A stretch of DNA of 64,000 nt from Terriglobia bacterium (GCA_963664115.2 CAXWPJ010000012.1:525356-589355), one strand, 5' to 3'. Positions 18,501 through 57,953 are shown, numbered from the stretch's first letter. Program-made: numbers and translations. The notes: generated by a model not told the origin, from the sequence alone.

Positions 18501-18918
18501 TTCGCAAACTTTCTCTGAACGTTGCCAGTATCATTAATAGTGCAAACCCCAAGCGGTACTCTAAAAATCAGAGAGCGCCGCGCGACGGCCTGCGGCCGCG
18601 CGCGGGTTGAAATAACACTCATACGACGACATTGCCAGCGCTGACATAGTCGTCAGACCCTGCTTGTATCGCTTATCCGCCTCGCAGCCCTCCGAGAGTT
18701 AAACCTCGACAAACGCCGTTTCGTTTACCGATCCAAATTCAACGTCCCAGAAGTCGGCTTCTGGCAACCAGTTCTAGCTTTGGAACGAGTGGATTGGAAG
18801 CAATGATTGAATCAGCGGGATTCTCAACGTCCGAGAAGATGATTTGTCAGGACTTGAGACGGCAGAGAAGATTTCGTAGTGGCCAAGTTAGGTCACGGAT
18901 CGCATTGGATGAATGCGA

Positions 18919-21003: not shown

Positions 21004-21282
21004 CAGGCCCTGACGATCAGGAAGCGTACCCAAGATGAATTTGCCTAAAATCGAAGGCGATAGAAGCGGTTTCCGCAATTCCTGTAGCGAAAGGGGAGTA
21101 CGAAGAACAGGAGAAGCCGTTCGAGCCAGCGCCGACGAGACCGGTGAATCTCTTTCGAGCTGCATCGGGGGCATTGCTCTCAATTTCCGACAAGATGATT
21201 TCTCAGGACTTGACCGCGAAAAATTACGGCGTCGGCACCCGATGCTTCAGTTCTAAAATCAGTTCAGGCCGATGTTGATTTA

Positions 21283-21703: not shown

Positions 21704-21811
21704 CAGGAGAGCCGAGAATCCGCTGTTCGCCCTTTCGATTTGAAGTCGTTCTCAGCGCGGTAGAAACACGGCAGAAAACAGAAATTACAGTCCTCAACGT
21801 CCGAGAAGATG

Positions 21812-23063
21812 ATTCAGATCAACCGGTCGATGCAACACCTGCGTTTAATGTCTCTGCCGGATTAGCGAAGTCCAGCGTCTCACGAGGTCGCCCGTTGAGC
21901 TTCCTTGCGATCATATCCAAATGCTCCTGTGAGTGAACCGACAAGTCCGTACCTTTAGGGAAATACTGTCGGAGCAAACCGTTCGTGTTTTCGTTCGAAC
22001 CCCGTTGCCAGGGACTCCTCGGATCGCAAAAGTAAACGGCAATGTCGGTGGCCAGAGTGAACCGTTTGTGATTGGCCATTTCCAATCCGCGATCCCAGGT
22101 CAGTGTTTTATAGAGTTCGGTCGGGAGTTTGTCTGCGTGTTCGATCAGCGCGTTGATGACGGTTTCGGTTTCCTTATTCGGAACCTTCACCCGCATCACG
22201 TACCGGGAGAAACGTTCGACCAATGTCGCAATGTAGGTGTTGTTCGAACCCGCTATGAGATCCCCTTCCCAGTGTCCGGGGACCGCGCGATCTTCAACCG
22301 AAGCCGGGCGCTCACGGATCGATATCAGATCCGGGATCTGCCCGCCACCCCGGCCTTTGCGACTGGCATGCTGGGACCGGCGAATCGTGCGTTTGGTCCG
22401 TAGATGCTGTGTCAGTTCTTTCTTCAGAGCCCCGCGGGCCTGGATGAAAAGGCTGCGATAGATCGTTTCGTGTGACACGTAAAGTGACTCGTCGTCTGGA
22501 TATTCGCGTTTCAGCCAACCCGCAATCTGTCGCGGTGCCCAATCCTCCCGGAGCTTCTCTTCGACGATCCCGCGTAAGCTGGGATAGCGGATCAGTCGAC
22601 ATCTCTTCGGGCGGTGAGCCCGTTCCCATGCGCGTTCATCCGCCTCCAACGCTCGATAGTTATCATAGCCCCCATTGCGACCGATCTCCCGACTGACTGT
22701 GGAGGGTGTACGCGACAGCGACTCGGCAATTGAACGGATCGATCCCTTGGCGGCAATGCCTCGGGAAATCTCTTCACGCTCGGCGAGGGTCAGCGCCCGC
22801 TTAGAGCGGCATCGTGTCCTGGGACAGATTCCACCATACGGTGCGATCTGACCATAAACCGAAGAGCCCTCCTTTCCGAACACACGTCCGATCGCTTTCA
22901 GACTCTCTCCCCGCTGCCAGCGAATCCACACCTCGTCTATATCGGCGAGTGTGTAGCCTCGCCGCACCCGGTCTTTACTCTGTTTCTTCCGTCGTTTCTT
23001 ACGCATACACTCCACCTCCTCCTTTTAGGTACAGTGTTGCATCGATCTGTTGAGACCACCTCG
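21812..23063 (-). mobile_element. IS30-family element (transposase 21819-23015) inserted in the centre of a 40-bp repeat
   Basis: GHWEGDL, TWDRGLE and PWQRGSNENTNGLLRQY motifs. Inverted repeats TCAACnGnTCGATGCAACAC. The flanks rebuild the repeat. Confidence 0.92.
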
Positions 23064-23155
23064 TTTCTCAGGACTTGACCTCGCTTTTCGTTCCAGGTTC
23101 GGTGACCTAATGGATGGTGGCTCACTTGCGGTGGGCACTCATTCAGAAACAGCGG

Positions 23156-23317: not shown

Positions 23318-23614
23318 CTCGACCTCCTGAGGGGGGCCACTTAACCCCCTGGTGGATTTCTCAAGGTCCGAGAAGATGATTTCTCAGGACTTGAGAATCA
23401 TTTTCACGGTTGAAGGCTCAGAGCCCTTTTGTCATTCGATAGCTTCATTCTCTCCCACTCTGAAATCTCTTCCCTCCCCGCACGGTCCGTTGCAATAATT
23501 ACGTCCTGTTGAACTGAAAGGTTGAATGGACTGAAGCGAGGAAGCATCTCAAGATCCTGAAGGATGATGTTGGGCTGACAATAACCATAGTAAGCTCAAC
23601 GATGAGAGGAGGAC

Positions 23615-27646: not shown

Positions 27647-28176
27647 TGTTATCCTCCGTTGCTTGATTAAGCAGTTAGACAGCAGGGGGCAGGATCGGTT
27701 TAATTCTCAACGTCCGAGAAGATGATTTGTCAGGACTTGACCCAGGGGAATTAGGGAACCGGCACACGTTCCTTCAGTTCGGTGGCGCCGGCGATGGCCG
27801 TTTGGCGTGCCCTCATACGAAAACAACAACCATAACGGAGGCTCCGTCCCTTGAGACTCCGGCCACCCTCTATCCGTTCGGCCTCTGAATTTCCTCGTGC
27901 GGAATTCTTTCGAGCAATTTTTTCAACTTCAGTAAAGGGATCATGGCGAAGTTGAAAAGCCTCTACATTCGGTTGATGGCCTGCGAAAGAAAGTGCTTCC
28001 CGACCCGAAAAGACCCCCCCAAAAAAAACTGGACGAATTACAGATATTAGGGATATTGTTTCAATCACAAATAACAGAATCTTTCCAATGTACAAATTTC
28101 TGAACGTATTCCGGCCGGAATTACGTCCTGTTTGGTTCATAGGAGCGTCGACAAACGCGAGTCTAAGGAGGACCCT

Positions 28177-29809
<1,633 letters not shown>

Positions 29810-31299
29810 TGTAGCCCGTCAGAGCATTTCGCACAGAATCCGCTGAAAAACTAAGAGACACTTTTCTAATCAGAACGATCTGAAGGAGGATCGAATGAGT
29901 GAGAAAGTGTCGGCAGAGAATCGGGTACGGGAGATTCGTCGGAAGACGAGGAAGAAGTACTCGTCGGAAGAGAAAGTGCGGATTGTGTTGGAAGGACTGC
30001 GAGGTGAAGAGAGCATCGCAGCGCTGTGCCGACGCGAAGGGATTCCGTCAAATTTGTATTACCGGTGGAGCAAGGACTTCCTGGAGGCGGGGAAGAAACG
30101 GCTGGCTGGGGACACGAAGCGGGAAGCGACATCGAGCGAAGTCACTGAATTACGCCAGGAGAACGAACAGCTGAAGCAGGTGGTAGCTGAAATACTGCTA
30201 AAGAATCGTTTTCTGAAAAAAACGTTGAACGTAACGGACTCCGAGAGCATCGATATATGAGGCAATCGGGATCTGAGAAGCTGGAGACGATCCGAGTGGT
30301 GGAAGACTCGGAGTTGTCGGTGACAGCGACCCTCCGGGAGCTGGGCGTCCCCCGCAGCACGTTCTACGGTTGGTATCGACGATACAAAGAGCGTGGCGCA
30401 GCCGGCTTGTTAGATCGGCATTCCGGCCCCGGCTTCTGCTGGAACCGGATTCCGGGACCGGTGCGGGAACAGGTGGTCGAAACCGCGTTGAACCACCCGG
30501 AAGCCTCACCGCGGGAACTGGCCTGGCAGATCACCGACACCCAGGACTACTTCATCTCCGAATCCAGCGTGTATCGGATTCTGAAGAGATGCGACCTGAT
30601 CACCAGTCCCGCATACATCGTGATGACGGCCAGCGATCACTTCCAGCAGCCAACCCGGCGTGTGAACGAACTCTGGCAAACTGATTTCACTTACTTCAGG
30701 GTCGTCGGTTGGGGTTGGTACTACCTGTCGACCGTGCTGGACGATTACTCTCGCTACATCATCGCCTGGAAGCTCTTTCAAACCATGGCCGCATCTGACG
30801 TTCAGGACACGCTGGACGTTGCACTACAGGCGACAGATGTCGGACAAGTACAAGTCCGGCACCGACCGCGATTGTTGAGCGACAACGGCCCCTGCTACGT
30901 ATCGCACGAACTCAAAGACTATTTACAACGTCGTGGTATGGAACACACCCGGGGTGCGCCCTATCACCCGATGACACAGGGCAAGATCGAACGCTATCAC
31001 CGTTCGATGAAGAACGTGGTCAAGTTGGAACACTACTATTATCCGTGGGAACTTGAGCAGGCGATCGCGCAATGGGTCGAACACTACAACCACCATCGGT
31101 ATCACGAATCTCTGAACAACGTGACACCGGCTGACGTGTTCTTCGGGAGGGATCAGCAGATCCTTGCACGTCGTGACCAGATCAAAAGAAAAACGCTGGC
31201 TCGACGCAAAATCGAGAACCTTAGGATTGGAGTGGTATAACTTCAAAACCGTCTCTTAGCTAAATGGTCTTTTTGTCCGAATTATTCTGACGACGTACA
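29810..31299 (+). mobile_element. IS3-like element, full copy with variant orfA allele
   Basis: 1490 bp with the same ends as the other copies. Confidence 0.95.
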
Positions 31300-32673
31300 C
31301 ACGTGAGTGTGAACAAAAAGGAGTCCGAGATGAAGAATAAGACGATTGCAGTCGATCTGGCAAAGAATGTTTTTCAAATTGGTGTTTCAGATCGCCCCGG
31401 GCATGTAGAGAAAACCTATCGTTTAAGTCGGGCAAAGTTTCTGGGGTTCTTTGCGAACCAGGAGCTGGCGACCGTGGTGATGGAAGCCTGCGGATCCGCC
31501 CATTACTGGGGCCGGAAGATCCGGGAACTGGGACACACGGTCGTTCTGATCTCGCCGCAGTATGTGACGCCCTACGTCAGGCGCAACAAGACCGACCGTA
31601 CGGATGTGAAGGGATTGTTGGAAGCCTATCGCGACAGCGATATTCATCCGGTCCCGATCAAGACGCTGGCCCAACAGCAACTGACCTCATTGCATCGAAT
31701 CCGTTCGGCGTGGATGCGAACCCGAACCGCACGGATCAATACGGTGCGGGGGTTGTTACGGGAGTTTGGCTACGTGATCCCGACCGGAGCGGATCATCTG
31801 GTGCCGGGGGTAATGGAGCTGATCGAAGATGCAGATGTCGTCATCCCCAGTGTCGTTCGGGAGATGTTTCACCAGGTGTGTGGCGAGATCCGTGAATTGG
31901 AATCTCGCATGCGATCGGTGGAACAAGAGTTGAAGACGCTGGCTCGGCAGATGCCTGAGGTCGCGCGTCTGACGTCGATTCCCGGCATCGGCCTGTTAAC
32001 GGCAACGGCAATGGTGGGGTTTGTTGAAAACATCAAACGATTCCGAACGTCCCGCCATTTTGCCAGTTATCTGGGACTCACACCCCGGGAACATTCCAGT
32101 GGCAACCAGCGACGCATGGGCCGGATCAGTAAGCAAGGCGATCGTTACCTCCGGATGCTGTTGGTTCATGGGGGCCGTTCCCTGTTGTGGAGTGCCCATC
32201 GAGAGGGCGCCACACCGACACCTCTCCAGCAATGGGGTCTCCAGAAACACGAGTTCCGCGGACACAACAAGGCAATCGTTGCACTGGCCAACAAGTTGGC
32301 GCGTCGCGTGTGGGCGGTTTGGAACCGTGACTGTGACCATCAGGCCCGGTATCAGGCGGCCTGACCCGGAACAGTCGGAATATCTTTTCAGCGAGCTGCG
32401 ATGAGGTTCGAGATGATGGCGTACCGGTCAGACCGGCGCGGGGCAACGCCGACAAGTCCTTTGGCCCTTAGAGGCCGTTATTTTATCGGTTGGCTCCCCG
32501 CGCGCAAATTTCCATCATGGCCCGGAACAATACAGTTCCACTTTTGAGGCCGAAGATACGGGTGCAGTCGACTAGCTACTCACCTCGTAACTTCTAGTCA
32601 GTCCTGCTGAATGCATTTTGCCGAAGAAAGCTGACGGGAGAGCTGCGCCTACTTGACAGAGGAGTCCAGATAC
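31300..32673 (+). mobile_element. IS110 family, IS1111 group (transposase 31330-32364), left end lost, inserted in a 40-bp repeat
   Basis: IAVDLAK/VMEACG/KTDRTD RuvC-like motifs, SIPGIG and GLTPREHSSG motifs, long 3' non-coding end finishing TTGACAGAGGAGTCCAGATA, joined to CAGGACTTGA. Confidence 0.9.
32390..32575 (+). ncRNA. Putative bridge/seek RNA of the IS1111 element
   Basis: Structured 3' non-coding region. CAAGTCCT (32453) and TTTATC (32482) match the target repeat, and AGATAC (32554) matches the IS end. Boundaries are approximate. Confidence 0.65.
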
Positions 32674-33654: not shown

Positions 33655-33775
33655 ATTACTGAAGAGAGTACCAGTCTGGAGTTCAACGTCCGAGAAGATG
33701 ATTTCTCGGGACTTGAGAATCATTTTCAAGGTCGGCAAATGGATTCGGCCAGATCAATCCGCCCCTTCCTGTTGG

Positions 33776-34012: not shown

Positions 34013-34459
34013 TTCTTGGACTCCGATATTGCATATTGCTGTCCATGATCGAATTGAACCGTAACCGCTTGATATCGTGAGTGATCCTGCATTAGTAGGT
34101 GGCGGGCACATAGTCATGGTTTTGACGAAATCGCAGGTATTCGTCAGGGCCGCAACATTTTGACTGAATCTGGCGCCTTAAAACTGGCCAAAACCGTGAC
34201 CCGGGCGGATGCTCGGCAGCGTGACGGCAGGACACGTCGCATTTTACTGTTTCAGTTGATGGACCGTGGCTTGGGCCTCGCACTTCCACAGTCGGAATTT
34301 TAGTTTCCTTCCGTCAAAGAACGAGAATTACCCTGAGTTCAATTCTCAAGGTCCGCGAAGATGATTTCTCGGAACTTGACCTCGGAAATCAGGGTACGGG
34401 CACCCGATCCTTCAGTTCTTCAAACCAGTTGAGGACGATGTTGATTTCGCCCGACTCAG

Positions 34460-34983: not shown

Positions 34984-35208
34984 TAGCGAAAAGTTGAAGC
35001 GGTAGCCGCTGTCACGGTTGATAAAGGATTCGACGCCGCTAAACTTGACAAGGTGACGACTTGGGAATTGGATTACTGCCGCCTATCAAATTCTCAATGT
35101 CCGAGAAGATGATTTCTCGGGACTTGACACCGCCGTCATCGCAAGTGCCAAGCGTTGAAACGAAGAAATGCAGATAGGATGGTACGGTTTCTCAGCCGGA
35201 GCATCGCC

Positions 35209-35754: not shown

Positions 35755-36113
35755 TGTGCAGAGCCCCGACGAAATCGTCATGGAAGCGCTGTCAAGTTAA
35801 GCTGACTGGTGGCGTTTTGGCCCCCCTCCACCACTTCTAACTTGCGTACTGAGTCTGAAAGGCAAGAGTTAGAGGCAATGAGCGGGTCAAGTGCTGCCAA
35901 ACGACCTTCCCGTCATCTGACCAACGCGCCTTGTTTCGGCCATTTGCCAAATGACGCCAAGATGATTTATCAGGACTTGAACTCGAAAACCAGGGGATCG
36001 GCTCCCGTTCCTTCAATTCCTAGAACCAGTTTTTGCCCCTCCATGGAGGTGGGGTTCCGGGAGCGCCAATTAAGATTGCGTCATTTGCTCGATAGGCAGC
36101 TAAATTAAGAGTC

Positions 36114-36962: not shown

Positions 36963-37006
36963 AAGGCAGAATCAAAACTAGCCTCGTTATGACGGAGGTT
37001 CAGAAA

Positions 37007-37275
37007 TCACGGCACCGGCACTCGTTCCTTCAGTTCTTCAAACCAGACTTCATGAGTGGGCGCTCACCCCGAATGATGAAAATCCCGTTTTGCGCCCTAA
37101 ACACCCAGAAGGGAGCAAAACGCCCGTACTGAATCTAAAGAACTTACCCCATATTTTCGTAACAGTTCAGGACGATGTTGATTTGGGGGCGGGCGGGTGC
37201 AATTACTTCGGTTCGGTCTGCCGCGAAGGCCATCAAGAACTGTTCGCCGTCGGGCGTGATGTCGTAGTCGCGATA
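37007..37275 (-). pseudogene. 3' remnant of a Ser/Thr kinase-PD40 propeller gene, interrupted by a 116-bp insert
   Basis: YDITPDGEQFLM...QINIVLN[insert]WFEELKERVPVP*. Confidence 0.75.
37047..37162. mobile_element. Short non-coding insert (MITE-like), copy 1 of 3
   Basis: ACTTCATGAGTGGGCGCTCAC...ACTTAC...TTTTCGTAA flanked by a duplicated CAG. Homologues at 52676-52797 and 60117-60229. Confidence 0.65.
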
Positions 37276-37849: not shown

Positions 37850-38359
37850 TCAGCGAAACTCGGCCACGACGCCATCCCGAATAACTACAATAGTCCCGCC
37901 GAAGATCAGCTTTTCCGACTGCCTGCTGACAACTTGTGCGTCGGGTCTTCCGAAACGCTCAATCACGTCGGCCCGAGGGGAACCCACCAGAATCTGCCCA
38001 GTACCCGAGCTGTTGCCTCTAGAGGGCCGCGTCGCTATGGCTAGTCGGTCTGAACGCTCGACGATCCCGGTGCCGTAATACCCTGTACCGTAGCCGTCAC
38101 CGTAGTACCTGCCAGGAAAGAAACCCCGATTCCCCAGTGTGACTATGCCGATCACTTGGGTCGCTGTGCGGGGCTCAAATCCAGGTGCGACCTTCACGGC
38201 CCGTGGACCAACGAGAATCACTGTAGGACCGACGCCAACCGGATAGCCCAGAACACCCGGATAACCCAGGACCTCGGGATAGATAAGGTGCTGGGCGGCC
38301 AGGGCCGCAGGGAACACGATCAACGTTGCCAGAGCTGCAATGACTGCTTTACTCTTCAT
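37850..38359 (-). CDS. Secreted hypothetical protein
   Basis: GGAGG RBS, signal peptide and C-terminal VIERFGRPD motif. Confidence 0.65.
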   Translation of the reverse strand: MKSKAVIAALATLIVFPAALAAQHLIYPEVLGYPGVLGYPVGVGPTVILVGPRAVKVAPGFEPRTATQVIGIVTLGNRGFFPGRYYGDGYGTGYYGTGIVERSDRLAIATRPSRGNSSGTGQILVGSPRADVIERFGRPDAQVVSRQSEKLIFGGTIVVIRDGVVAEFR

Positions 38360-38460
38360 ACCCGTTACCCCTCCACGGTTTGCGTGGAAAGGGACTCCTT
38401 TACCCTATCAGACGAGCGCAAGCTGTGAAAACGTTGGGTGGTCCAGAATGTCAACGTCCG

Positions 38461-39135
38461 GTCGAGTAGACCCGGGGAATTTCACCCCGAGTCCCTCACA
38501 GAACCGTGCTTGAACCTCTCGATTCACACGGCTCTTGCCAGCCGTTCGCCGACCACCTCACGGTGGGGGGCCGACACCCGATGAATCCGGCTCCTCCCGC
38601 TTGCGCGGTTGGCCAGTTCCAAAGAGCGAGCTGGCTCATCCCCTTCGCTCCCCTCCCATTACAAGAGGTTCATCACTACTACAGGATGATCCGCCCCTGA
38701 ACTCCGCATCCGTACTCTCGCCCTCGTGGTTCTGGCCACTTGTGGCTTCTCCGTTAGCATCGAAGTTCAGGTTCCCACGTTCCGCTCAACCGCCTCTTGG
38801 TAAGCTCAGGCCACCTCTCATGCCGGAGGCCACTCCGCCCGTAAACAGGTTCCGTCGGAGCTCGTCCCGCAGTATCTTCTCCCTGCGGTTTTGGCCATCG
38901 TCTTTAAATTTTCGACACTTCAACAGTGGTTCCCTTTCGGTCCTCTTCTTACCAGTCACCTGACCCAGTCATCGCCGGGCCTTTTCCTTCTGCGCTCACG
39001 ACCATGGCTTTTGACCACAGCCGCCAGAGGTGGTTTGAAACCGACGCCTGTACGCCGGCTCCGAGGGGCCCTCCCTCATCAGTTGAGTAGTTACGCACTC
39101 GATGACCTTGCGGCCCCCGAGCACTCGTGGCACAC
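38461..39135 (-). ncRNA. ORF-less group II intron (675 nt) inserted in a 40-bp repeat
   Basis: 5' GTGTGCC end, domain V GAGCCGTGTGAATCGAGAGGTTCAAGCACGGTTC, domain VI ending TCTACTCGAC. Removal restores TCAACGTCCG|AGAAGATGATTTATCGGGACTTGA. Confidence 0.9.
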
Positions 39136-39171
39136 AGAAGATGATTTATCGGGACTTGACCTTGAAAATCA

Positions 39172-40772
39172 GAGTTATAACCGAATCTGGTGTTTGAGGG
39201 ATTGAATAAGAGCGGCGTATCTGGTTGATTTGTTGTGACAAAACTTCAAAGCAACCATAGGAGATACGCCACTGTGAGCAAGAGTAACGTGAATGGACCG
39301 GAAGGTCGAGAAACGATTGAGGATCCAGTAACAGAACTACTACGAGTTGGGGCACAGCAACTGATCCAACGCGCAGTGGAAGCCGAATTGGCAGAGCTGC
39401 TATCCCAGCACGGTGGCCGGCGAACTGAGACAGGAAACGCCGGGGTGGTACGCAACGGTTATCTGCCGGAACGCGAACTGCAGACGGGATTGGGTCCGGT
39501 AACAGTCCAAATCCCGAAGGTCCGTGCCAAGACGGGCGAAGCTGTGACGTTCCGATCGGCCCTGGTACCACCGTACATTCGGAAGACGAAGTCGCTGGAA
39601 GCAGCGGTGCCGTGGTTGTATTTGAAAGGCGTTTCCAGCGGCGAGATGGGTGAGGCCCTAAAAGTTCTTGTCGGTCCCCAGGCGCAGGGTCTGTCGGCGA
39701 GCACGGTATCGCGGTTGAAACAGGTTTGGGGCGAACAGTACCGCCTCGGATGCGAGGAGCGTTTGGATGCAGATCGCTGGGTCTATGTCTGGGCCGACGG
39801 CATCTACAGCGGACTTCGGGCGGAACAAACCAAGTTGTGTGCATTGGTCGTGATCGGCGTGAATGAACGCGGAGAGAAGCGTTTCCTGGCGATCGAAGAC
39901 GGTGTACGGGAATCGACACAGAGTTGGCGCGAGGTCTTGTTGAAGCTGAAGTCCCGTGGGATGAATGTTCCGAAGTTGGCCATCGGTGACGGTGCGATGG
40001 GGTTCTGGGCCGCACTGGAGGAAATCTATCCCGAGACACGTCAACAACGTTGCTGGATGCACAAAGTCATGAACGTCCTCAACTGCCTGCCCAAGTCGGT
40101 CCAGGCGAAGGCGAAACAGGCCCTGCACTCGATCTGGCAGGCCGAGACGAAGGCAGACGCCGAGAAGGCATTCGACTTGTTCATTGAAACCTATGAACCG
40201 AAGTATCCGAAAGCCACACTCTGCCTGCAGAAAGACAGAGAGGAACTGCTGGCCTTTTACGACTTTCCGGCCAAGCACTGGCAGAGCATCAGAACGACGA
40301 ATCCCATTGAGTCGACCTTTGCCACCATTCGACACCGAACGAAGCGATCCAGAGGTTGCCTGACACGGGATGGCATGCTGCACATGATGTTCAAACTGGG
40401 CCAGTGCGCTGAGAACAATTGGCGACGATTACGAGGATTCGATGATCTGAGCAGAGAGTAACTGCTGGCCTTTTACGACTTTCCGGCCAAGCACTGGCAG
40501 AGCATCAGAACGACGAATCCCATTGAGTCGACCTTTGCCACCATTCGACACCGAACGAAGCGATCCAGAGGTTGCCTGACACGGGATGGCATGCTGCACA
40601 TGATGTTCAAACTGGGCCAGTGCGCTGAGAACAATTGGCGACGATTACGAGGATTCGATGATCTGAGCAAGGTAATCATCGGAGTGAAATTCAACGATGG
40701 TGTCGAAGCGACACAAGTCGATCAGGCCGCCGCTTGAATCAATCTCCTAAACACCACTTTTGACAATAACTC
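39172..40772 (+). mobile_element. IS256-family element with internal ~215-bp tandem duplication
   Basis: RNGY, WADGIY, IGDGAMG and RTTNPIES motifs. Ends GAGTTATAACCG / TTGACAATAACTC with 9-bp TSD TGAAAATCA. Confidence 0.92.
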
Positions 40773-42307: not shown

Positions 42308-42728
42308 TAAAGTGTGTCGCTGGAAATACCGAGAAAAACTCTGCAAAGGATACTAAGGGAGGAAGTTAGGCGCTATTAAATTCTCAGGTCAAACGTTAGA
42401 TTCTTATCGGGAGTAACCCGGCGAGAGGCGAGGGGGACAAGTGGTGATGAATGACCGGGTTACTTTCGATGAGGGCGTTTGAAGGAAGCCGCCCACAGGT
42501 CAGGCGGCTATGTAGTTTGAAAGCGGTTTCGGGTATCGACGACGTGGAGGTGGACCGAGTAAGCGCCCCGGTTGAAACCAAAAGGTCGGTTTGAAGCTGG
42601 GGATTTGAGACTCACCGTATCTGAGAATGATGACTGAAACACTGTTGTCGTGGTGAATTTGGGCAACCAGACGCACGTCGGCTGAACGTGCCCGAGCACG
42701 TCGCCAGTTCCAATGGAATGGGGGGGTG

Positions 42729-43910
42729 TCAGGAAGAATCGAATCCCCTCCTTTCAAGTGGCCACCGGATCTGGGCCGCGGTGAGCCGCTCCCCGATCGT
42801 CATGGCCGCGCCGCAGTTGGGACAGCGCCAGGAGTTGGGGCGTGCATCGGTCGATCGTTCAGATGTCTGAGTCGCAGTAGCACCTCCTAACCAATGCCGG
42901 CACAAAGGCAGCAGTGAACCACGATGGCGGGCTGAGAGAAAACCAAAGAACCGGATGCGGACGAAGCGGCGCGGCAAGGTGTGGGTGAGAAAGCGGATGA
43001 GAAACTGTTCAGCCGGAAGCGTCATGTTGCGGGGTGCGTGCTTGTGCCGGGAGTCTTTCCAGCGAAACGTAACCTGACCGTCCTGGAGATCGACGAGGCG
43101 GTGGTTGGAGATGGCGACCCGATGTGTGTAACGGGCCAGATAGTGGAGTACGTGTTTGGGCCCGCCGAATGGACGCTTGGAGTAGACGACCCAGTCGATG
43201 TGATGGAGCGGGCCGATAAAGGCCGCGAATCGTTTCGGGTCGTTTAATGGGGCCAGATCGCCATAGAAACGTAGCTCTCCCCGCTTGAACGATCGCCGAA
43301 GCCGGTCCAGAAACTTACCCCGAAACACTTCACTGAGCACCTTCACTGGAAGGAAGAACCGATGGCGGGCCCGAATCCATCGGGTGTGGTCGCCCGACAG
43401 GCCACCGGCAGGAACGACACAATGGATGTGGGGATGATGACCCAGCGTCTGACTCCAGGTATGGAGCACGCTGAGCACGCCAATCTGGGCGCCCAGATGT
43501 TTCCCGTTGGCGGCCACTTCCTGCAACGTGGCCGCGCTGGCCCCAAACAGCAGGGCATAGATCACACGTTTGTTCTGATAAGCCAACCGCGCCAGGGGTT
43601 GGGGCAGGGTGAAAACGACATGCACGTAGCGAGTCGGCAGTAACTCCCCGGTGCGATCCGTCACCCACTGGTCACGGGCACGGGTCTGACACTTCGGGCA
43701 ATGCCGATTGCGGCACGAGTTGTAGGAGAGGGCGCGATAGTCGCAGTTCGATTCCGAGCATCGGTCCCGGTGGCCTCCCAGCGCCGCGGTGCGACACTGC
43801 TGAATAGAGTTGAGGACGCGCAACTGACCGCCATCGAGCCGGCGATGCGCCACCAGGTCGGAACCATGACGACGGATGATGTCGGCCACCTCAAGGGTGG
43901 GCCGGGTCAC
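42729..43910 (-). CDS. IS91-family (Y2 HUH) transposase
   Basis: YNSCRNRHCPKCQ, HPHIHC and YLARYTHR motifs. Confidence 0.92.
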   Translation of the reverse strand: MTRPTLEVADIIRRHGSDLVAHRRLDGGQLRVLNSIQQCRTAALGGHRDRCSESNCDYRALSYNSCRNRHCPKCQTRARDQWVTDRTGELLPTRYVHVVFTLPQPLARLAYQNKRVIYALLFGASAATLQEVAANGKHLGAQIGVLSVLHTWSQTLGHHPHIHCVVPAGGLSGDHTRWIRARHRFFLPVKVLSEVFRGKFLDRLRRSFKRGELRFYGDLAPLNDPKRFAAFIGPLHHIDWVVYSKRPFGGPKHVLHYLARYTHRVAISNHRLVDLQDGQVTFRWKDSRHKHAPRNMTLPAEQFLIRFLTHTLPRRFVRIRFFGFLSARHRGSLLPLCRHWLGGATATQTSERSTDARPNSWRCPNCGAAMTIGERLTAAQIRWPLERRGFDSS

Positions 43911-44791
43911 CGCAACCCGACTTCGCTTGAATCCAATAGCGGGATCTGATCCAGCGGATTCTTTATGGCCTGTAAGTGCCGGTTCGACAGATGCAGATAC
44001 AGCGTGGTGTGCTTCAGGTCAGCGTGGCCCAACAGGAGTTGAATCGTGTAGAGATCGGTCCCGTCTTCCAACAGGTGCGTTGCGTAGCTGTGTCGCAGGC
44101 TGTGAGGTGAGATCCGCTTGCGGAGAATCGCGCGCTCACGCGCTTCCCGGCAAGCGCGCCACACCATCTTCGTGGAGATCGGTGCATCGACCCGACGGCG
44201 CCGTTTCATGCCCGGAAACAGGTAGGTCTTCGGCTTCATCCAGCGCGCGTACTGGCGCAATGTCTCCAGTAGTCGTGGACTCAGCGGCACGGCCCGGTCC
44301 CGTCCGCGTTTCCCACCCCGGATCTGAATCACCATCCGTGCGCTGTCGATGTCCTCTATTTTGAGGCACACCAGTTCACCGCGACGCATCCCGGTGCCGT
44401 AGAGCGTCATCAGCATCGCCCGCTGCATCAACGTGCGACACCCATCGATCAATCGGGCCACTTCCCCACGAGAGAGCACGACCGGCAATCGCCGATCCTG
44501 TTTCGGCATCGGTGTGTGTTCGAGCAGATAGGTCCGATTCAGTGTCTTAACGAAGAAGAAGCGTAATGCCGAGACGTGTTGCGCCACTGTCCGGGCCGAC
44601 AACCCCCGATCTCGAAACAGGTGCACCTGGTACTGCCGGATCTCGTCGGCTCCCAATCGGTCCGGCGCTCGGCGGAAATGTCGGGCAAAGTTCCCCAGGA
44701 TTCTCAGGTAGGTCTGTACCGTTCTCGGAGCGTAATTACGTCGCTGGAGCTCGTCCAGCATCAACCTGCGGTTGGGCGTCATTCGGATCAT
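43907..44791 (-). CDS. Tyrosine recombinase/integrase
   Basis: YGTGMR..E, GKRGRDR, HSLRHSYATHLLE and LLGH..TT.Y motifs. Confidence 0.92.
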   Translation of the reverse strand: MIRMTPNRRLMLDELQRRNYAPRTVQTYLRILGNFARHFRRAPDRLGADEIRQYQVHLFRDRGLSARTVAQHVSALRFFFVKTLNRTYLLEHTPMPKQDRRLPVVLSRGEVARLIDGCRTLMQRAMLMTLYGTGMRRGELVCLKIEDIDSARMVIQIRGGKRGRDRAVPLSPRLLETLRQYARWMKPKTYLFPGMKRRRRVDAPISTKMVWRACREARERAILRKRISPHSLRHSYATHLLEDGTDLYTIQLLLGHADLKHTTLYLHLSNRHLQAIKNPLDQIPLLDSSEVGLR

Positions 44792-44983
44792 AGAGATATC
44801 CCTCCTGTATCTCTACAACCCGATACCCTCCCTCAGTCAGGCCCGGTCCTTCACCACGCACGCAAAGCGTCCGCCGCGCCAGCGGCTTAGTTCAAACGAC
44901 ATTGTCGGACGTTGAGAAAAGGCCTGGGAAATGGGGGTTCTCAAGGTCCGAGAAGATGATTTATCAGGACTTGAACTCGAAAA

Positions 44984-45118
44984 TCACGGCATCGGCACCC
45001 GCTCCTTCAGTTCTTCAAACCACTTCAGGACGATGTTGATCCGGGACCGCCTCGCCCCACCGATGTCAGCTCTGCCAGCTGGAACAATCGTGATGAATTC
45101 TTCGCCGGCTGGGTGATG
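44984..45118 (-). pseudogene. 3' remnant of a Ser/Thr kinase-PD40 gene
   Basis: ...EEFITIVPAG...RINIVLKWFEELKERVPMP*. Similar tails start at 21224, 27751, 34389, 35990, 40779, 49143, 50826, 52636, 57931 and 60076. Confidence 0.75.
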
Positions 45119-48985: not shown

Positions 48986-49196
48986 GTTTAAAGTGTGACG
49001 CTAAGTGGAACAGCGAAATTCTGGTAAGTCTATCTACATGGGAGGGATATTGGCAAGGAAAGGGTCAACTCCCGAAACTTGGCAAATTCTCAACGTCCGG
49101 GAAGATGATTTCTCAGGACTTGAGAATCATTTTCATGGTCATTTAGGGCACCGGCACAACACAAGTTTTCTCTCAGGCGCGCAATTGTACGTGGAC

Positions 49197-49532: not shown

Positions 49533-49736
49533 TCGGTGGCATCCTCCGAAGTAAAAGCGTCAAGAGCTTGGTACAACCCAACCGTGCAATTCTCAACGTC
49601 CGGGAAGATGATTTGTCAGGACTTGAGAATGGATTGCAGCGGTAGACAGAGACGGACGGCCCACTTTACGGTGCTTCTTCAAGTTCCTACATCCGTTTCT
49701 GGCAATAGATGTTGGCGTCGCGTCCGGACGCGGGGT

Positions 49737-50576: not shown

Positions 50577-50911
50577 CGTGAAAACGTCCTACAGCAGACA
50601 GGTCCGGACAGAGTGTCAAGTACTTCAGCACTGTCTGCCAGAATGAGTCCGAATCGCTTTTTATCTCCCAGCCATTGAACCTTTTAACCAGCGAAGACTC
50701 CTTCCAACTACAGTAAATCAGAAGGCCATGGCAGTCCACTTGGACGTATATTTGGCTTATCGGAAAGTGGTGGGTTCAATTCTCAATGTCCGCGAAGATG
50801 ATTTATCAGGACTTGAACTCAGAAATCAGGGCACGGGCACCCGCTCCTTCAGTTCTTCAAACCAGTTGAAGTGTATAACGGCTCGCTCTTCCCGTCTTAG
50901 CTTCACGTATC

Positions 50912-57750: not shown

Positions 57751-57953
57751 GTTTAAAGTGTGTCGCTGAAAATACCGTGAAAAACTCGGTAAAAGATACT
57801 AGATGAGGGAGTTAGGCGCTATCAAATTCTCAAGTCCCTGCAAACGACCTTCTCGGACTCTGAGAAAAGGCCCTAAAAACGGGATTCTCAAGGTCCGAGA
57901 AGATGATTTCTCAGGACTTGACCCGGAGAATTAAGGCACAGGCACCCGTTCCT

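Follow-up and report, generated by a model that had tools for sequence, protein, structure and literature searches.

Organisation of the locus

The stretch of DNA analysed here, 64,000 nucleotides in length and hereafter called the window, corresponds to positions 525356-589355 of contig C12 in the Terriglobia genome G000, the source genome. On its minus strand (38461-39135) lies a 675-nt group II intron of IIB, class D-like type, which splits a 34-bp repeat at the junction TCAACGTCCG|AGAAGATGAT. The left part of the split repeat (38451-38460, plus strand) is the 3′ exon and holds the first seven bases of a XerC-like arm. The right part (39136-39159, plus strand) is the 5′ exon and holds IBS1 (39136-39142), IBS2 (39144-39148), the repeat spacer (39140-39145) and the right arm (39146-39156). 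An ORF-less group II intron on the bottom strand at exactly this junction had been proposed in the original prediction, and is confirmed by the sequence and by Rfam; the span given at the time, 38451-39162, encloses the intron, its remainder being the two repeat halves.

Downstream of the intron and in the same orientation is an ORF of 169 aa (37850-38359, minus strand) that matched no Pfam or NCBIfam family. On the other side, 11 bp beyond the repeat, we found an IS256-family element (39171-40461, plus strand), with an exact 216-bp tandem duplication at its end (40236-40667).

The repeat recurs along the window, where its pattern has 12 matches against 0 in 100 shuffles, and its copies can be divided by spacer into types A and B. 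Intact type A copies are found on the plus strand at 18824-18857, 21180-21213, 23361-23394, 27707-27740, 35094-35127, 49090-49123, 49593-49626 and 50783-50816. Two more have identifiable neighbours, one (33683-33716, plus strand) having on its left a phosphotransferase block that recurs on contig C6 with another right neighbour, and the other (34346-34379, plus strand) lying next to a kinase-gene 3′-end remnant. The left arm of a further type A copy (35947-35980, plus strand) has decayed. A plus-strand repeat is split at its spacer by an IS30-family element (21794-23078; gene 21819-23015, minus strand), and a type B repeat contains a recombinase-IS91 element (42394-44896, minus strand) encoding a tyrosine recombinase (43907-44791) and an IS91-type transposase (42729-43910). 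The split type B site (44897-44915) stands head to head with an intact type A copy (44941-44974, plus strand), and a doublet at 57830-57921 combines type B (57830-57863, minus strand) with type A (57888-57921, plus strand). The array also contains a gene for a 560-aa collagen-repeat protein (28132-29814).

The intron has the hallmarks of group II (IIB) introns, namely a GUGYG 5′ end, an AY 3′ end, a domain V with an AGC triad and a bulged A in domain VI; its own ends read GUGUG...CUCGAC. Rfam model RF00029 matches 38461-38536, covering domains V and VI, at 58.7 bits (cut-off 40), and RF01999 (group-II-D1D4-2) matches a minus-strand segment of domain I (38958-39077) at 106.4 bits (cut-off 36), so that both models are above their cut-offs. 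Domain V (38501-38534, minus strand) starts with GAGCCG and carries the AGC triad, and domain VI (38461-38500, minus strand) has its bulged A at 38467, seven bases from the end, and an AC 3′ end. The whole intron RNA folds better than 20 of 20 shuffles (z −4.5). No RT ORF was found in the intron, two ORFs running antisense over it had no Pfam match, and a promoter scan around it found none. In one DNA run, pieces of the intron had about three times the depth of the flanks, a figure that comes from contigs only, which break at the repeat. The RNA runs likewise consist of short contigs, and no splice junction was seen in them. Some of the run labels read sponge metagenome, which we do not use to assign a habitat.

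Probable recognition of the target by EBS1 and EBS2

A minus-strand stem-loop at 38867-38888 presents AGAAGAU (38880-38874), and its coordinates were given correctly in the original prediction. This seven-base EBS1 pairs with IBS1, AUCUUCU. EBS2, AUUUA (38905-38909, minus strand), pairs with IBS2, UAAAU; it is real, judging from covariation, but UAAAU, which had been described as adjacent to AUCUUCU, is one base apart from it.

We gathered relatives of the intron from 61 genomes, 16 of which had a match, and from a metagenome scan (at least 121 loci). Sixty-two of 137 anchor matches could be parsed, the remainder being excluded for an unparsable EBS region (45), a missing 5′ end (17), insufficient length (3) or duplication (10). 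At least 5.5 of 6 EBS1 positions paired with the intron's own exon in 39 of the 62 parsed introns, compared with 59 of 3104 swapped pairs, and at least 4.5 of 5 EBS2 positions did so in 34 of 62, compared with 274 of 3104. The loop claimed as EBS1 covaries with the 5′ exon across relatives, and the possibility that it might not sit at the EBS1 position was not borne out. EBS1 pairing was poor (3 of 6) in two copies that sit directly behind other introns. An 89%-identical copy in G000 has a different loop and a different, matching exon outside the repeat. The AGAAGAU loop itself was seen in no parsed relative from other genomes, and in G000 the copies bearing it (3 of 3) are all in the repeat.

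Of 73 occurrences of the target word in the genome, 72 are within the repeat, and 66 of 148 intact type A sites still carry it. Since a seven-base EBS1 together with EBS2 suffices to address the site, recognition of a hairpin need not be invoked. We are highly confident that the intron homes by pairing of EBS1 and EBS2 with the repeat. Many relatives of the intron target a different sequence, the YADD-coding stretch of other intron RT genes, again with matching EBS1 and EBS2 (metagenome loci L147, L148, L163, L171 and others).

Intron copies, class and candidate helper

G000 contains two further full-length copies of the intron, 98.5% and 99.1% identical to that in the window. All three split the repeat at the same base and differ in their flanks on both sides, and for one copy 114 bases of the 3′ exon match a site that has no intron. 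An intron-free allele of the exact window site was not found in genomes G001-G004. The three copies are on the G-rich strand of C12 (n = 3, one contig), as expected for lagging-template insertion, a bias described for RmInt1 (PMC5894124).

The AGC triad, the seven-base EBS1 and the covarying EBS2 bear out the earlier reading of a domain V beginning GAGCCG as unlike class C. Judging from RNA similarity and from the RTs of sister introns, the intron is IIB and class D-like; an S. meliloti intron played no part in this assignment, as its identity with RmInt1 was not established. A sister in genome G001, 88% identical to the window intron, encodes an RT, the gene for which is apparently broken. 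Five RT matches were found in G000, and the sole class D-like one among them is encoded on contig C4. This protein has 420 aa, in which Pfam finds only RT and maturase-type domains and no endonuclease domain; its C-terminus and that of the G001 sister RT are near the class D motif as described in PMC4615759, with two substitutions each. Among plasmid sequences its best matches reach about 60% identity, and many of these belong to multi-copy introns of Sinorhizobium/Rhizobium. The C4 RT's own intron RNA is 67% identical to the window intron and is interrupted after domain V by another intron. We observed separately that one RT-encoding intron inserts repeatedly just after domain V of other group II introns, ORF-less class D-like ones included, forming twintrons (G000 C4:18300-20300, C5:325800-327770 and C11:21070-23060; L007).

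By alignment, the window intron keeps a DIVa-like hairpin and a Shine-Dalgarno-like run at the start of domain IV (38591-38608, minus strand), the start codon of RT-encoding relatives being gone, and this retained hairpin region is likely to be the maturase-binding site. That a maturase must come in trans, as originally argued from the missing RT ORF, is supported. Class D introns have been documented to act in trans and to cross-complement one another (PMC4615759), and mobile ORF-less introns served by driver proteins are known (PMC2882425), which makes the C4 RT a plausible helper; we lean towards it as the candidate that serves the window intron.

Could the three copies instead descend from one old insertion that spread between repeats as DNA, by block duplication or gene conversion, the intron no longer retrohoming? 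The distance of the helper RT (67% RNA identity) and the readiness with which the arrays duplicate blocks are compatible with this, as is the fact that only three targets are filled when the matching word is available at 66 of 148 intact type A sites. We consider such a history very improbable, however, as the copies have only the intron and the repeat in common, with both flanks different in all three, as their catalytic domains are intact, and as both ORF-less mobility with driver proteins (PMC2882425) and cross-complementation among class D introns (PMC4615759) have precedents.

G002 contains an ORF-less sister with a different EBS1 and EBS2, which is located in a type B site on the opposite strand. 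No class D-like RT was found in G002 at E ≤ 1e-60 with the query used, though this sister is present. In the tree the window intron and the G002 sister are not resolved from each other (p-AU 0.26), and the two may be one retargeted lineage.

The repeat as a boundary between mobile blocks

Allowing up to six mismatches, G000 has 170 intact copies of the repeat, 148 with the type A spacer and 22 with type B, and a reversed-pattern control gave 0. At two mismatches the repeat is found in 8 of 61 related genomes (122 copies in G000, 81 in G002, 36 in G003, 8 in G001 and 1-3 in four others). Outside these near genomes the exact pattern has eight loci in GTDB, all titled as Terriglobia MAGs, and no exact match in the viral collection.

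Gene ends from one Ser/Thr kinase/PD40 family are common in the arrays (137 3′-end and 65 5′-end matches), most of them surviving as short remnants; such remnants frame unrelated cargo, in the window for instance at 34382-34430, 37000-37046, 44977-45023 and 50819-50865. In 72 of 148 cases a type A copy follows a kinase-gene stop codon at a distance of 6-39 bases, and type B copies are found about 113 bases upstream of kinase start codons; in the other 76 type A copies no kinase end was detected alongside, and unrelated flanks are joined. This placement, upstream of starts for type B and just past stops for type A, would suit an operator for a regulator of the kinase/beta-propeller family that was amplified along with gene ends. 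We regard an operator as highly improbable, because of the 76 type A copies that join unrelated flanks and because the asymmetric spacer does not vary, whereas a dimeric regulator would have no need of such constancy. Kinase-end arrays are also present in relatives with few or no repeats. Tandem, translationally coupled arrays of full-length kinase/PD40 genes occur in G026 and G029, and in G013, G021, G023 and G026 (L304-L340) kinase-gene stops are followed by other repeats, among them a GTAG-containing REP-like palindrome and a second, unrelated motif.

Two repeat-bounded blocks recur in different arrays, one of 1327 bp (99.3% identity) and one of 423 bp (95.5%). Both inner arms of the 1327-bp block differ by two bases between its copies, which does not result from a single clean spacer crossover and could reflect conversion during junction resolution. 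We also compared G000 with G002, over 370 kb of arrays with 80 sites, keeping 127 of 457 hits and dropping multi-copy ones. Twenty-four of the 254 ends of shared segments, which are not fully independent of each other, fall within 40 bp of a repeat, where 4.4 were expected, 16 of them in both genomes; the remaining 230 are away from the repeat. At one G002 site, the left flank of a C12 site is joined to the right flank of a C10 site. Pairs of sites that share the left flank have identical left arms in 6 of 17 cases (background 8%), and pairs that share the right flank have identical right arms in 4 of 16 (background 16%). A clean spacer crossover predicts that nearly all arms would go with their flanks, and these proportions count against it. 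IS copies inside sites provide a second possible route of shuffling. The orientation of the repeat relative to the replication strand is inconsistent between contigs (75 vs 47). The data nevertheless support the repeat as a boundary between mobile blocks.

Other elements that split the repeat

A second intron lineage, whose 449-aa RT is 29% identical to the C4 RT, splits the right arm of a repeat on C5 and enters at the same base twice more in G002. There may be a third lineage at a C11 repeat, although its 5′ exon does not match. Left ends are placed at a repeat arm in 7 of 7 copies of one IS110 element and 7 of 8 of another (the IS110 assignment being based partly on protein resemblance), and IS30 elements are at a repeat arm in 8 of 11 and 8 of 8 cases. 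The recombinase-IS91 element seen in the window interrupts type B sites, both in G000 and, in two instances, in G002.

Two of these groups have features of their own. An IS110 that splits the repeat (window approximately 31300-32670; G000 C5:47877-49300) contains, 3′ of the transposase, bridge/seek RNA-like matches to the repeat spacer and right arm, of 7-8 bases only. Elements that pair a tyrosine recombinase with an IS91-type transposase (window 42394-44896; loci L088, L092, L100-L109) have a long terminal hairpin and a short G|TT-type junction, like a self-encoded cassette, and number about 20 in G001 and 9 in G029.

Nature of the repeat

The repeat has two 11-bp arms and a 6-bp spacer, an 11-6-11 register fixed by the centre of the palindrome. 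A dif-geometry search returned one site, on C2 at the GC-skew switch, and we take this single dif-like 28-mer to be the dif of the genome. It is matched in 24 of 61 related genomes, once or twice in each. Occurrence as a single site at the skew switch is the behaviour of dif as described in PMC3025954.

The left arm of the repeat agrees with the dif XerC arm at 6-8 of 11 positions in 124 of 125 copies, 8 of 11 being reached at 0.08% of genomic positions. The commonest left arm agrees at 10 of 11 with the XerC arm of the sites in G048 and G056, which were found by a search that made no use of the repeat. Of 125 copies, 119 have the same spacer, and a variable pair in the stem shows no covariation (p = 0.59), which together argue for a double-stranded site rather than a hairpin. 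XerD (C2) and XerC (C9) are above NCBIfam cut-offs and are the only tyrosine recombinases common, at 80% or more, to G000, G002 and G003 (12 of 12 G003 and 18 of 27 G002 matches compared). Other sites with the exact dif XerC arm are found inside the same arrays. We also noted further 11-6-11 sites with one or two XerC-like arms and other spacers, at 18739-18772 in the window and at C9:952936, C2:750709, C2:322773 and C2:111541 in G000; two of these have the exact dif XerC arm and are in arrays, and one is 3.4 kb from dif.

Membership among Xer sites is weakened by the right arm, which agrees with the XerD arm at only 5-6 of 11 positions in 118 of 125 copies, although IMEX sites provide examples of a degenerate XerD arm (PMC6744903). 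The repeat does not preserve the inner T of the XerC arm, and conservation runs three bases past the 28-bp core on either side. Neighbouring sites form direct A-A pairs in 85 of 126 cases and inverted pairs in 40. XerC and XerD are also present in G004, where the repeat has no match at two mismatches. IS1202-type elements over the cut-off were absent from G000, G002 and G003, and those of G001 and G004 mostly have long target duplications and do not abut the repeat. With these points weighed, and judging from sequence, we put action of the host Xer proteins on the repeat at somewhat better than even.

The strongest competitor, which we consider unlikely, has the intron homing as described into a selfish, REP- or MITE-like palindrome, the arrays having been reshuffled by homologous recombination between IS copies and between kinase-gene ends. 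As an extragenic palindrome of 34-45 bp in high copy, the repeat falls within the 20-50 nt typical of REP/REPIN sequences; 72 of 148 type A copies follow closely on a kinase-gene stop (6-39 bases), and REPs are described as targets of IS1111 (PMC11187229). IS30 copies are often flanked by two halves of unlike type, A and B, which shows exchange through IS copies, the arms are poorly linked to the flanks, and relatives with few or no repeats have kinase-end arrays too. However, the consensus is missing the GTAG foot described for REPs (PMC8266576), the type A sites that were tested yielded no empty counterpart lacking the repeat, and covariation is absent from the variable stem pair (p = 0.59). 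The two RAYT-like genes of the genome are not flanked by the repeat, one decayed copy nearby being the only one; PF01797, matched in 51 of 61 relatives, does not discriminate in this respect. A selfish palindrome would also leave the likeness to the XerC arm and the fixed spacer unexplained. If the repeat is of this kind, what we describe is no more than an ordinary ORF-less class D intron that has colonised repeated DNA.

Closest to the original prediction of convergent targeting of a cassette site is a repeat that serves a dedicated recombinase other than Xer, for example as an attC-like, single-stranded cassette site for an integron-type integrase. One part of that prediction stands, since the repeat borders mobile blocks; the attC tests failed, and a double-stranded site of Xer/dif type fits better. 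Cores (RYYYAAC and GTTRRRY) were not found at both ends, 6 of 7 core bases being present on one arm in about half of the copies. Repeat-bounded blocks recurring in two arrays would agree with a dedicated recombinase, as would the integrase-like recombinase element that enters type B sites at G|TT in G000 and twice in G002. Each candidate agent was nevertheless rejected. The true IntI (440 bits) has cassettes of its own, and about 196 kb separate it from the closest repeat. The IS91-linked recombinase was not found in G003, which has 36 repeats and no IS91-type transposase match, and in G001 and G029 members of this element family have inserted where there is no repeat. Neither G002 nor G003 has a close homologue (E ≤ 1e-40) of a 316-aa tyrosine recombinase whose gene on C5 is flanked by two type B sites. 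Besides XerC and XerD, only a RIT-like protein (56-66%) is common to the three repeat-rich genomes (18 of 27 G002 matches compared). A dedicated recombinase thus appears rather improbable to us. With regard to the loci themselves, the 316-aa recombinase gene (L026:1561-2770; G000 C5:52060-53270) lies between outward-facing type B sites, each of which is followed by a kinase-gene start, and the true integron integrase, with a few co-oriented cassette-like genes, is found at L031 (G000 C9:712000-722000), apart from the repeat arrays.

Proposed model

Our preferred explanation, to which we assign a probability of roughly 0.55, is that the intron likely retrohomed into the 11-6-11 repeat through EBS1 and EBS2, with a class D-like RT encoded elsewhere as its likely helper, and that the repeat is likely a Xer (dif-like) site. 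The intron would be transcribed by read-through, would splice and would form a particle with the 420-aa C4 RT. Reverse splicing would then take place into the bottom strand of the repeat, probably while that strand is exposed as single-stranded DNA at the fork, the route of class D introns without an endonuclease. Blocks would be excised and re-inserted at the sites by host XerC, with or without XerD, and the poor XerD arm would keep the sites out of the FtsK-driven pathway. In the window the cut falls after the seventh base of the XerC-like arm, and the insertion, by breaking this arm in the DNA, would freeze the junction even if the RNA splices.

A wider and more tentative proposal, which we place short of even odds, is that this Terriglobia lineage made a XerC-type site into a chromosomal cassette system, with about 200 mostly direct sites of one spacer in integron-like arrays run by the host Xer proteins. 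The blocks would come from a kinase/beta-propeller gene with its middle replaced by cargo, and at least two group II intron lineages, two RNA-guided IS110s, IS30s and a recombinase-IS91 element would each have specialised on the site.

Comparison with known systems

ORF-less, retargeted IIB introns in repeated DNA are already known (PMC2882425, PMC4615759, PMC4424553), as are introns in attC cassette boundaries, with IIB introns near attC arrays also reported (PMC7923331), and IS elements that hunt Xer sites (PMC10132070; 10.1101/2022.12.17.520857). Our literature search, outside which most subscription papers lie, found no report of group II introns in dif-like sites or REPs, and no such arrays for Acidobacteriota. 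The novelty lies in the target, a dif-like repeat as a group II intron site, for which we found no report.

The closest intron relatives in the literature are RmInt1, RmInt2 and Sr.md.I1 (class D, IIB3; PMC4615759, PMC5894124), with which the window intron shares a IIB RNA, the use of both EBS1 and EBS2 and a one-base linker. Its relatives encode an endonuclease-less RT of about 420 aa with a class D-like tail, comparable to theirs, and in both cases the target is a multi-copy repeat; their protein can act in trans, as the helper of the window intron would have to. Unlike them, the window intron is without an ORF, and its target is a 34-bp dif-like repeat rather than an IS or inverted repeats. 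Loss of the ORF from domain IV, a driver protein (putative here) and retargeting via a new EBS are features in common with the TeI3 introns of Thermosynechococcus elongatus (PMC2882425), which however belong to another lineage, number 17 rather than three, and do not have a putative recombination site as target.

Group IIC-attC introns (PMC7923331, PMC4424553) also settle in the repeated boundary sites of an array of gene blocks. They have a CGC triad, a short EBS1 and no EBS2, whereas the window intron has an AGC triad, a seven-base EBS1 and an EBS2; its target contains no attC cores and is unlinked to IntI. They are oriented opposite to the cassette genes, in contrast to the window intron, which is co-oriented with the ORF at 37850-38359 and with the kinase-gene ends. 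The parallel is one of lifestyle and not of mechanism. Should the repeat be a Xer site, targeting would have come about by plain EBS retargeting, not by recognition of structure as in IIC-attC introns.

As for the arrays, the pdif and chromosomal dif modules of Acinetobacter (PMC13141974, PMC12907356) likewise have 11-6-11 sites with a XerC-type arm that bound shuffled small gene blocks, cluster in chromosomal islands and attract site-hunting ISs. Here there are at least 170 sites with one dominant spacer and a poor XerD arm, mostly direct where pdif sites alternate (PMC13141974), in a host of the Terriglobia (Acidobacteriota), and the blocks are often framed by kinase-gene ends. If these are Xer sites, the shuffling of dif modules would extend from Acinetobacter to another phylum, in a layout of direct repeats with one spacer and a weak XerD arm, and how a chromosome tolerates so many Xer-like sites would become a testable question. 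In IMEX sites such as difGGI (PMC6744903, PMC3025954) the XerC arm is similarly kept and the XerD arm degenerate, which blocks FtsK-driven excision; in contrast to these, the repeat is scattered over many arrays far from dif, and no phage or island core was identified.

Finally, mobile elements specialised on a repeat or recombination site of the host have been described in the IS1202/ISAba32 hunters of dif sites and in the IS1111-attC and REP-targeting IS110s (PMC10132070, PMC11187229, 10.1101/2022.12.17.520857). In the present case the elements are group II introns, IS110s, IS30s and a recombinase-IS91 element, and the site is split rather than abutted. If the repeat is a Xer site, group II introns join the hunters of chromosome-resolution-type sites, and the convergence of unrelated elements on one 34-bp site offers a usable flag for undescribed recombination sites.
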